The notes: generated by a model not told the origin, from the sequence alone. Positions 52,534 through 52,641 are shown, numbered from the stretch's first letter. The stretch: 64,000 nucleotides of DNA from a virus (IMGVR_UViG_3300028649_000004:1-64000), one strand, 5' to 3'. Program-made: numbers and translations.

Positions 52534-52641
52534 TTATCCACGTCCTGAACCAGTTGTTGCAAACGCTACAACTGTCATTACAACAGTTGATATTGTTACG
52601 ATTGCAGTTATAATTAGTGCTTTAAATCTTGCTTTTGTCAT
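52534..52641 (-). CDS. Secreted signalling pro-peptide, AimP/Phr-like, 35 aa: MTKARFKALIITAIVTISTVVMTVVAFATTGSGRG
   Basis: Strong AAAAGGAGGTG RBS; basic N-region, hydrophobic core, AFA signal-peptidase motif, tail TTGSGRG; double TAA stop. Confidence 0.85.
   Translation of the reverse strand: MTKARFKALIITAIVTISTVVMTVVAFATTGSGRG

Follow-up and report, generated by a model that had tools for sequence, protein, structure and literature searches.

What does an open reading frame (ORF) of only 35 codons, placed directly behind the gene of a TPR-fold protein, encode in a virus from peat, and how would its product be released? The frame occupies positions 52534..52641 on the minus strand of the window, by which we mean the whole stretch of 64,000 nucleotides analysed here. 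The window is the first 64 kb of an 84,391-base virus record with 24.9% G+C; nearly all of its genes lie on the minus strand, and the sequencing runs of the record are peat metagenomes. An earlier sequence-only reading had taken the frame for a hidden pro-peptide whose mature signal is set free by signal peptidase alone, and had supposed a weak promoter of its own in the gap before it.

The small gene and its operon

The 35-codon frame is present as had been described (ATG at 52641, stop at 52534-52536; MTKARFKALIITAIVTISTVVMTVVAFATTGSGRG), and the translation confirms that exactly seven residues, TTGSGRG, follow AFA. The pro-peptide candidate is built of an n-region, MTKARFK (net +3), a hydrophobic stretch, ALIITAIVTISTVVMTVV, the AFA and the tail TTGSGRG before the stop, with 21 uncharged residues between K7 and the tail, ahead of the putative cut site. 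A strong ribosome site precedes it, the Shine-Dalgarno sequence AAAGGAGGTG lying at 52650..52659 (-), 8 nt upstream of the ATG. An alternative frame of 47 aa opens at an ATG at 52677 without a ribosome site, and the matching ATG in the related locus L002 is out of frame, thus the 35-aa form is the gene. The sole DNA variant within the ORF, an A>G at 52549 in run X17, is synonymous (Gly31, GGT>GGC). Inside the ORF, on the opposite (+) strand, a promoter-like TTGATA-16-TATAAT with 11 of 12 matches was found at 52587-52614; the other four loci compared below are without it, and it is probably a chance product of AT-rich DNA.

The ORF is the last gene of a three-gene operon that directly follows yopQ/yopR(MrpR)-like genes and consists, in order, of three tandem promoter-like sites, a MazF/PemK fusion, the 215-aa TPR-fold protein, the peptide ORF and a terminator-like hairpin. 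The upstream yopQ/yopR-like unit ends in an intrinsic-terminator-like hairpin with a T-run (54554..54579, -). The three promoter-like sites (54239..54459, -) read AAAGT[AG]TTGACA-17-TAATAT/TAAACT, stand about 90-100 nt apart and are the only perfect copies of the promoter motif in the window, where seven matches against 1.9 expected are found if one mismatch is allowed. Copies before the MazF fusion recur in the related loci (L001 2795-3195, L002 2844-3097, L003 2952-3205, L004 2608-3000), numbering 3, 2, 1 and 3, and the sequence of the spacer is conserved (for example ...TTCCGTAGGGTGTAATAT). The YopR-like protein could also use these sites as operators. Two contigs of 6.8 and 8.8 kb from the DNA runs X17 and X18, both of higher depth, match nothing but the beginning of the MazF fusion gene with its leader (54085-54199), show 17 mismatches there and then diverge; they represent related phages sharing that junction.

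The distance of 96 nt between the 215-aa gene and the peptide ORF was confirmed, and the two hexamers that had been proposed as a private promoter of the peptide, TTGTAT (52703-52708) and, 17 nt on, TATATC (52680-52685) of the minus strand, do exist. The promoter itself is not supported: the hexamers do not pass the promoter scan; in none of the five loci did a consensus scan find a sense site with at least 10 of 12 matches at 120 nt or less from the ORF; the gap between the TPR gene and the small ORF shrinks to just 60 nt in L002 and 37 nt in L003; and in the window both hexamers belong to a strong hairpin in which the ribosome site is paired. The peptide ORF is probably co-transcribed with the TPR gene. 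A hint of transcription comes from contigs of two wetland metatranscriptome libraries, one of which matches 53357-53583 (the mazF/TPR junction) with one mismatch and another 53610-53810 (mazF) with none, DNA carry-over being possible for both. The RNA runs, X19 and X20, were compared as contigs only, none of which lies over the peptide ORF, and they are uninformative on its expression.

The intergenic hairpin (52647..52722, -) uses its 3' arm to pair with the AAAGGA of the ribosome site and folds with -29.1 kcal/mol (108-nt stretch, 52636-52743) against -12.2 (sd 2.9) for mononucleotide shuffles. Equivalent hairpins over the ribosome site, with different stem sequences, lie at about 4672-4744 in L001 and about 4505-4570 in L004, giving -29 to -33 kcal/mol across the three loci against -7 to -14 for shuffles; L002 and L003, with their short gaps, fold without one. 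Such a hairpin may act as a brake on translation or as a site of RNA processing, and its presence in the gaps of the window, L001 and L004 points to damped or conditional translation of the peptide. An 18-bp terminator-like hairpin (52468..52507, -) begins 27 nt past the stop codon of the ORF, and UAUAAUAUU comes after it (z -6.7, 106-nt stretch folded). A strong hairpin follows the small-ORF stop in all five loci, with clear U-runs in L002 and L003.

Right after this operon terminator lies a gene for an HNH/AP2-type homing endonuclease (51470-52432, -; phrog_953, E 1e-53), whereas L002 has no homing endonuclease at that site and L004 a different ORF of 531 aa (4791-6386), which suggests an insertion hot spot. 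The region 50733-51347 (-) corresponds to what in L002 is one gene of 207 aa (4935-5558), interrupted here by one in-frame stop (51147-51149) that leaves ORFs of 66 and 130 aa, i.e. a nonsense variant, a pseudogene or a case of read-through. Several homing-endonuclease and at least three further tyrosine-recombinase-like genes occur in the record (5192-6382, 9268-10848, 16087-17745, 39519-40724, 42527-43408 and 61918-62835, all on the minus strand). Because contigs as long as 219 kb carry the same proteins, the 84-kb record may represent a section of a larger phage or phage-plasmid.

The pair in five lineages and the proteins beside it

The window was compared with four loci on IMG/VR contigs of 35-196 kb, three of them (among L001 to L004) found with sub-alignments of distant members of the TPR family and the fourth with an alignment of the MazF fusion. 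The phage of L004 turns up again as L011, on a contig of 141 kb, and L005 and L008-L011 are repeats of contigs or modules already in the set. In all five lineages the gene order is the same (yopR-like, MazF fusion, TPR-like, small ORF), the TPR-like gene and the small ORF are on the same strand with gaps of 37-96 nt, and an (A/G)GAGGTGA box stands 7-9 nt before the small-ORF start. The small ORFs (MKKRTIKATLIVIAIYATMILSTIVASAGSIGRG in L001, MKKILSYALALAVFVAPTVIRILSSGGGWG in L002, MMRLKNKLMMLTLLAIPVITVFSSGNGWG in L003 and MNKSKVKVFVLMAVIAIATMASQISCYAISSGRG in L004, besides that of the window) all encode 29-35 aa with a K/R-rich start, a hydrophobic core of 14-21 residues and a short tail of 6-7 residues: TTGSGRG in the window, ISSGRG in L004, GSIGRG in L001, SGGGWG in L002 and SGNGWG in L003. 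The comparison of tails that the sequence-only reading had called for thus gave short tails ending in G-[R/W]-G throughout, and its proposal of a pro-peptide-like gene adjoining a TPR protein is borne out to the extent that the pair is kept in all five lineages and the neighbour is TPR at the level of the fold. Among 1,884 open frames of at least 25 aa in the genome and the four loci, a G-[RW]-G end occurs in five, each being the small ORF after a TPR-like gene, a count that is descriptive, the motif having been defined after the ORFs were seen. An alignment of nine peptides leaves only the last G-x-G invariant, the hydrophobic cores being barely alignable. The 35-aa ORF is real and is conserved as a gene.

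Four close homologues of the peptide were found in public protein sets, with tails TTGSGRG or STGSGRG. Two peptide homologues are on contigs of the same sizes (7,068 and 1,562 bases) as those of the TPR homologues P0002 and P0003, which are 77% and 85% identical to the window protein, and a MazF-fusion homologue is on a contig of the matching 7,068-base size; both contigs appear to carry the TPR homologue together with the peptide. No locus was returned by searching collections of viruses, metagenomes and genomes with the TPR protein of the window or its close alignment, by a degenerate pattern of the peptide's C-terminal portion, or by alignment A6 and, in genomes, alignment A4, and none of 50,697 phage records was matched by the TPR protein in tblastn. 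L006 was rejected as a further locus of the module, having an ordinary 110-aa MazF and no TPR gene.

The genes of the module have not diverged in step with the gene before them. Between the window and L002, identity is 75% for the yopR-like protein, 33% for the MazF fusion and 27% for the TPR protein, and the tails end in GRG and GWG; between L002 and L003 it is 37%, 50% and 46%, respectively, and both tails end in GWG. These differences between the yopR-like and the module genes imply that the three-gene module has a history of its own, and the comparison of the window with L002 indicates that recombination broke the locus in the promoter region and exchanged the module as a whole. Judged by these identities, the tail class tracks the TPR protein and not the neighbouring yopR-like gene. 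Such tracking is how a specificity pair would behave, and it would equally be expected from plain co-inheritance, since there are only five lineages, all of one syntenic phage group.

The candidate receptor is encoded at 52738..53385 (-), 9 nt after the MazF fusion, and gene callers also start it at an ATG at 53361, which gives 207 aa. AlphaFold2 with an 11-sequence alignment predicts ten helices at a mean pLDDT of 93; in this model the ten TPR-like helices take up all 215 residues and leave no room for a DNA-binding domain. The protein belongs to no Pfam, PHROG, NCBIfam or PADLOC family, Foldseek returned TPR proteins only, none at E <=0.001, and a structure search of BFVD gave no match at E <=0.001. 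The ESM Atlas offered generic TPR clusters only for the protein and nothing usable for the peptide. In an exhaustive structural search with VIA-align the best match was a kinesin-light-chain-like TPR (Z 13.8), followed among others by PlcR-PapR (Z 11.1), RapH (Z 9.5) and RapI (Z 9.2); for helical repeats such values would mean a common fold and nothing more, PlcR and Rap not ranking above generic TPR proteins. The label of TPR gene given from the sequence is correct at fold level, TPR structures being the best matches. A profile search of 1.84 billion representatives found 44 relatives at E <=0.001, all of 70-229 aa and none fused to another domain; 36 of them and the window protein make up a 37-row alignment, from which the eight shortest (P0021, P0024, P0035, P0038, P0045, P0048, P0052 and P0060) were left out. 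Pfam gave only scattered single matches at noise level (E 0.002-0.009) on the 37 rows, the family profile found no solved structure among PDB sequences, and no sequence similarity of the TPR protein to any RRNPP receptor was detected.

The MazF/PemK fusion (251 aa; 53395..54150, -) is composed of an N-terminal helix, a disordered linker, a barrel (61-167) and three C-terminal helices (182-250). It matches PF02452 with E 2.4e-18 and 66.8 bits (cut-off 23.1), and Foldseek places its MazF domain with Bacillus MazF/MoxT/YdcE (E 1.6e-11, 37-38% identity, rmsd 1.6-1.8 A). R82 and T105-S106, which we take to be catalytic positions, do not vary across 12 sequences. A gene for a MazE-like antitoxin was not recognised beside the fusion, and PADLOC found no match for five neighbourhood proteins. 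A complex prediction of the fusion with the TPR protein from alignment input scored 0.00 and 0.00 without controls and is evidence neither way.

Upstream, a 383-aa YopR/MrpR-like protein with a tyrosine-recombinase fold (54578..55729, -) is a candidate lysogeny repressor: it matches the Pfam family MrpR_N_CB with E 5.4e-5 and 24.2 bits, under the cut-off of 27 bits, and a profile of five yopR-like orthologues finds YopR/MrpR of SPbeta as its best PDB sequence matches, only at E 0.0023. Before it lies a 470-aa YopQ-like protein (55722..57134, -; phrog_5732), which aligns over 443 residues (E 1e-9) with CST029 of Clostridium phage c-st, annotated in the c-st record as a YopQ homologue and adjoining a YopR homologue. 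MrpR (YopR) has been described as the master repressor of SPbeta, with the fold but not the activity of a recombinase (PMC10516654; PMC8612738; both cited in part), and in SPbeta aimR-aimP precede an operon that ends in yopR (PMC8612738, in part). In phi3T, the arbitrium system acts by modulating the MazF of the host (PMC10769878, in part). From its neighbours, the module would seem to be placed where control of lysis and lysogeny is expected.

Export, release and competing interpretations

We favour, at a probability of roughly 0.55, the reading of the ORF as the pro-peptide of a phage signalling pair of the RRNPP/arbitrium type (Rap-Phr-like), in which the minimal, TPR-only protein of 215 aa encoded upstream would be the cytoplasmic receptor. 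The release of the tail by signal peptidase alone, as first proposed, is plausible from the peptides compared. An A-x-A stands right before the tail in two of the five lineages, AFA/TTGSGRG in the window and ASA/GSIGRG in L001, both textbook sites; L004 is less canonical (CYA/ISSGRG), with a rival site of TMA before SQISCYAISSGRG (TMA/SQ), and ILS/SGGGWG in L002 and VFS/SGNGWG in L003 are weak. By the bare -3/-1 rule, which is permissive, each peptide could be cut at several positions. The cores of L002 and L003, 15-17 residues with a proline, would suit a signal sequence better than a membrane anchor. In most RRNPPA pro-peptides the pheromone lies at the C-terminus and just one N-terminal cut is needed (PMC9765709, in part), and the signal-peptidase-only idea is in line with this general scheme. 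Phr peptides, on the other hand, need extracellular proteases (PMC11343458, in part).

The rival that survives best, which we nevertheless regard as unlikely, has the product stay uncleaved as a single-pass membrane protein with a cytoplasmic N-terminus and the 6-7-residue tail outside, serving the MazF/TPR module as a tether, a sensor partner or a peptide of type I-toxin-like or holin-like kind. Small hydrophobic peptides are common in Bacillota prophages, and the 21 uncharged residues of the window peptide are long enough for a membrane anchor, which counts against signalling. In type I toxin mRNAs the ribosome site is occluded by a strong hairpin, as it is at three of the five loci here, and the window has the antisense promoter-like site within the ORF. 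However, this site is confined to one locus of five and no locus has a sense promoter of its own for the small ORF, the proline-broken cores of L002 and L003 are on the short side for a membrane helix to be stable, it is the last residues and not the hydrophobic segment that hold most of the sequence conservation, and the A-x-A directly precedes the tail in two lineages. A type I toxin-antitoxin system was set aside, as conserved promoter-like sites are missing (consensus scan at 10 of 12 or more: sense in none of the five loci, antisense in one).

Export and cutting of a signalling pro-peptide by a route of the PptAB/Eep type, as for SHP and PrgQ/iCF10, in which case the releasing enzyme would not be signal peptidase and the mature end could differ, is rather improbable. 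The 29-30-aa forms could take such a route, as SHP and PrgQ do (PMC10075063, PMC9765709; in part), the precursors of 29-35 aa are within the size range of SHP and PrgQ, and L002 and L003 have no A-x-A site. The sources quoted also report that SHP and PrgQ are not Sec substrates by SignalP and that their mature part is the C-terminal end (PMC10075063, PMC9765709; in part). Against this, AFA and ASA stand exactly before the tail in two lineages, and the tails are Gly-rich and polar whereas pheromones of the SHP type are hydrophobic (PMC9765709, in part). That the ORF is untranslated and the conserved thing is RNA, namely the hairpin in the gap and the TPR gene's terminator, is very improbable: strong RNA structures do flank the ORF on both sides and the contigs of the RNA runs do not reach it, but the frame is open in five diverged lineages despite an AT-rich genome with frequent stop codons, each of them retains a ribosome site, a basic start and a G-[RW]-G end, and the only variant seen is synonymous.

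Under the signalling reading, the peptide would be exported, most likely by Sec, and a single cut after AFA28, for which type I signal peptidase is the likeliest enzyme, would free TTGSGRG or a trimmed TGSGRG. The free 6-7-mer would accumulate as infections multiply and re-enter cells via the oligopeptide permease of the host, where its conserved C-terminus would bind the groove on the concave face of the TPR protein. As this protein has no DNA-binding domain, it would act through protein contact. The first candidate target would be the co-encoded and co-diverging MazF-like RNase fusion and the second the YopR-like repressor, and with either target the outcome may be a bias of the choice between lysis and lysogeny or of plasmid-prophage maintenance. 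Clostridium phage c-st speaks against this reading, as its MazF fusion stands beside yopQ/yopR homologues without a TPR gene or peptide ORF and the fusion thus does not need them. A wider formulation, which we offer as a speculative possibility, would be an unrecognised class of phage communication in large, AT-rich phages of the Clostridia type, with a TPR receptor of about 210 aa without DNA-binding domain and a hexa- or heptapeptide ending in G-[R/W]-G that one cut sets free, the loaded receptor gating a phage MazF-type RNase fusion and so setting lysis versus lysogeny or plasmid-prophage maintenance. We infer a Gram-positive host only from the relatives, the 25% GC and the ribosome sites.

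Relation to known signalling pairs and significance

The RRNPP signature includes a pro-peptide of 10-100 aa, the validated examples having 21-50 aa, validated receptors have 285-473 aa, and a published large-scale detector looks for a receptor of 250-500 aa with a match to a TPR HMM (PMC10075063, in part). The small ORFs of the five lineages, at 29-35 aa, fall within the first range and are direct neighbours of the TPR gene in 5/5 loci. The signature also asks for secretion by Sec/SPase I, as called by SignalP, or a match to the SHP profile; a reading by rule finds in these peptides a basic n-region, a core of 14-21 residues, A-x-A in two of the five lineages and more than one permissible site. 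The receptor candidate, at 207-215 aa (70-229 aa in the family), is too short, and it has no Pfam match, its TPR array being evident at the level of the fold. On account of its length, the missing TPR HMM match and the want of the AimR DNA-binding domain, we do not file it with the RRNPP or AimR families. Full-text literature searches found no such module described; the supplementary tables of the RRNPP surveys could list related candidates.

By analogy, the module would work most like arbitrium or Rap-Phr. With AimR-AimP it shares that it is encoded by a phage and that a small pro-peptide gene directly follows that of a TPR-fold receptor. AimP is further processed outside the cell. Its mature signal is C-terminal, as proposed here, a hexapeptide with an R-G core (GMPRGA and GIVRGA; PMC8612738, in part), and yopQ/yopR lysogeny genes in the neighbourhood as well as a MazF link, in phi3T, recur in both (PMC10769878, in part). 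AimR, unlike the window protein, has a DNA-binding domain and is described as an antiterminator or a regulator of aimX (PMC10769878, in part). For homology of the 215-aa protein to AimR we found no HTH, no Pfam or NCBIfam match and nothing in profile searches of PDB sequences. The tails end in G-[R/W]-G here and in RGA in AimP, MazF is phage-encoded in the same operon here whereas phi3T uses that of the host, and the module stands behind the yopR-like gene, not in front of it.

A Rap receptor likewise has no DNA-binding domain and binds a protein target, and phr lies just downstream in the same operon and yields a short signal from its C-terminal end. Rap proteins are of about 380 aa. Unlike the candidate, they have an extra N-terminal helical bundle (chains of RapH and RapI 332-359 residues vs 215 aa here), and besides the reliance of Phr on extracellular proteases, the sequences do not match. 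Rgg-SHP and PrgX-PrgQ (iCF10) resemble the module in their very short precursors, whose extreme C-terminal 7-8 residues are freed by a single N-terminal cut, but their receptors have an HTH and their peptides are hydrophobic, exported by PptAB and cut by Eep (PMC10075063, PMC9765709; in part), compared with the Gly-rich, polar tails and, in two lineages, the classic A-x-A here. Finally, MazEF modules share the MazF/PemK domain, found here in the gene upstream of the TPR protein, and CST027, the MazF-like fusion of c-st, shares the C-terminal extension as well (E 3e-18) and is also beside yopQ/yopR homologues; unlike either, the module here has the TPR protein and a secreted-type peptide downstream, which c-st lacks. 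As a counterpart of the TPR protein in c-st we considered CST028, which comes after the MazF fusion there, and rejected it, since it shows no evident similarity and no signal-like small ORF follows.

The known peptide signalling of phages (arbitrium, phage Rap-Phr and other RRNPP pairs) works with receptors that have about 285-473 aa and are recognised by profile HMMs; the candidate receptor is shorter than any validated RRNPP receptor, and the published detector, by its length range and its TPR HMM, would have missed the family on both counts (PMC10075063, in part). If the signalling reading is true, signalling pairs can be much smaller than assumed, and large uncultured phages of peat (contigs of 116-219 kb) have them, one pair being wired in cis to a MazF-type RNase beside SPbeta-type repressor genes. 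The link that phi3T makes to the MazF of its host would then be built into the phage itself, and the arbitrium-MazF connection of phi3T would become testable in a module that is simpler and self-contained. As a signalling part, a pro-peptide that has to be cut only once to yield its signal would also be compact and portable, and communication from virus to virus would extend past the known systems.
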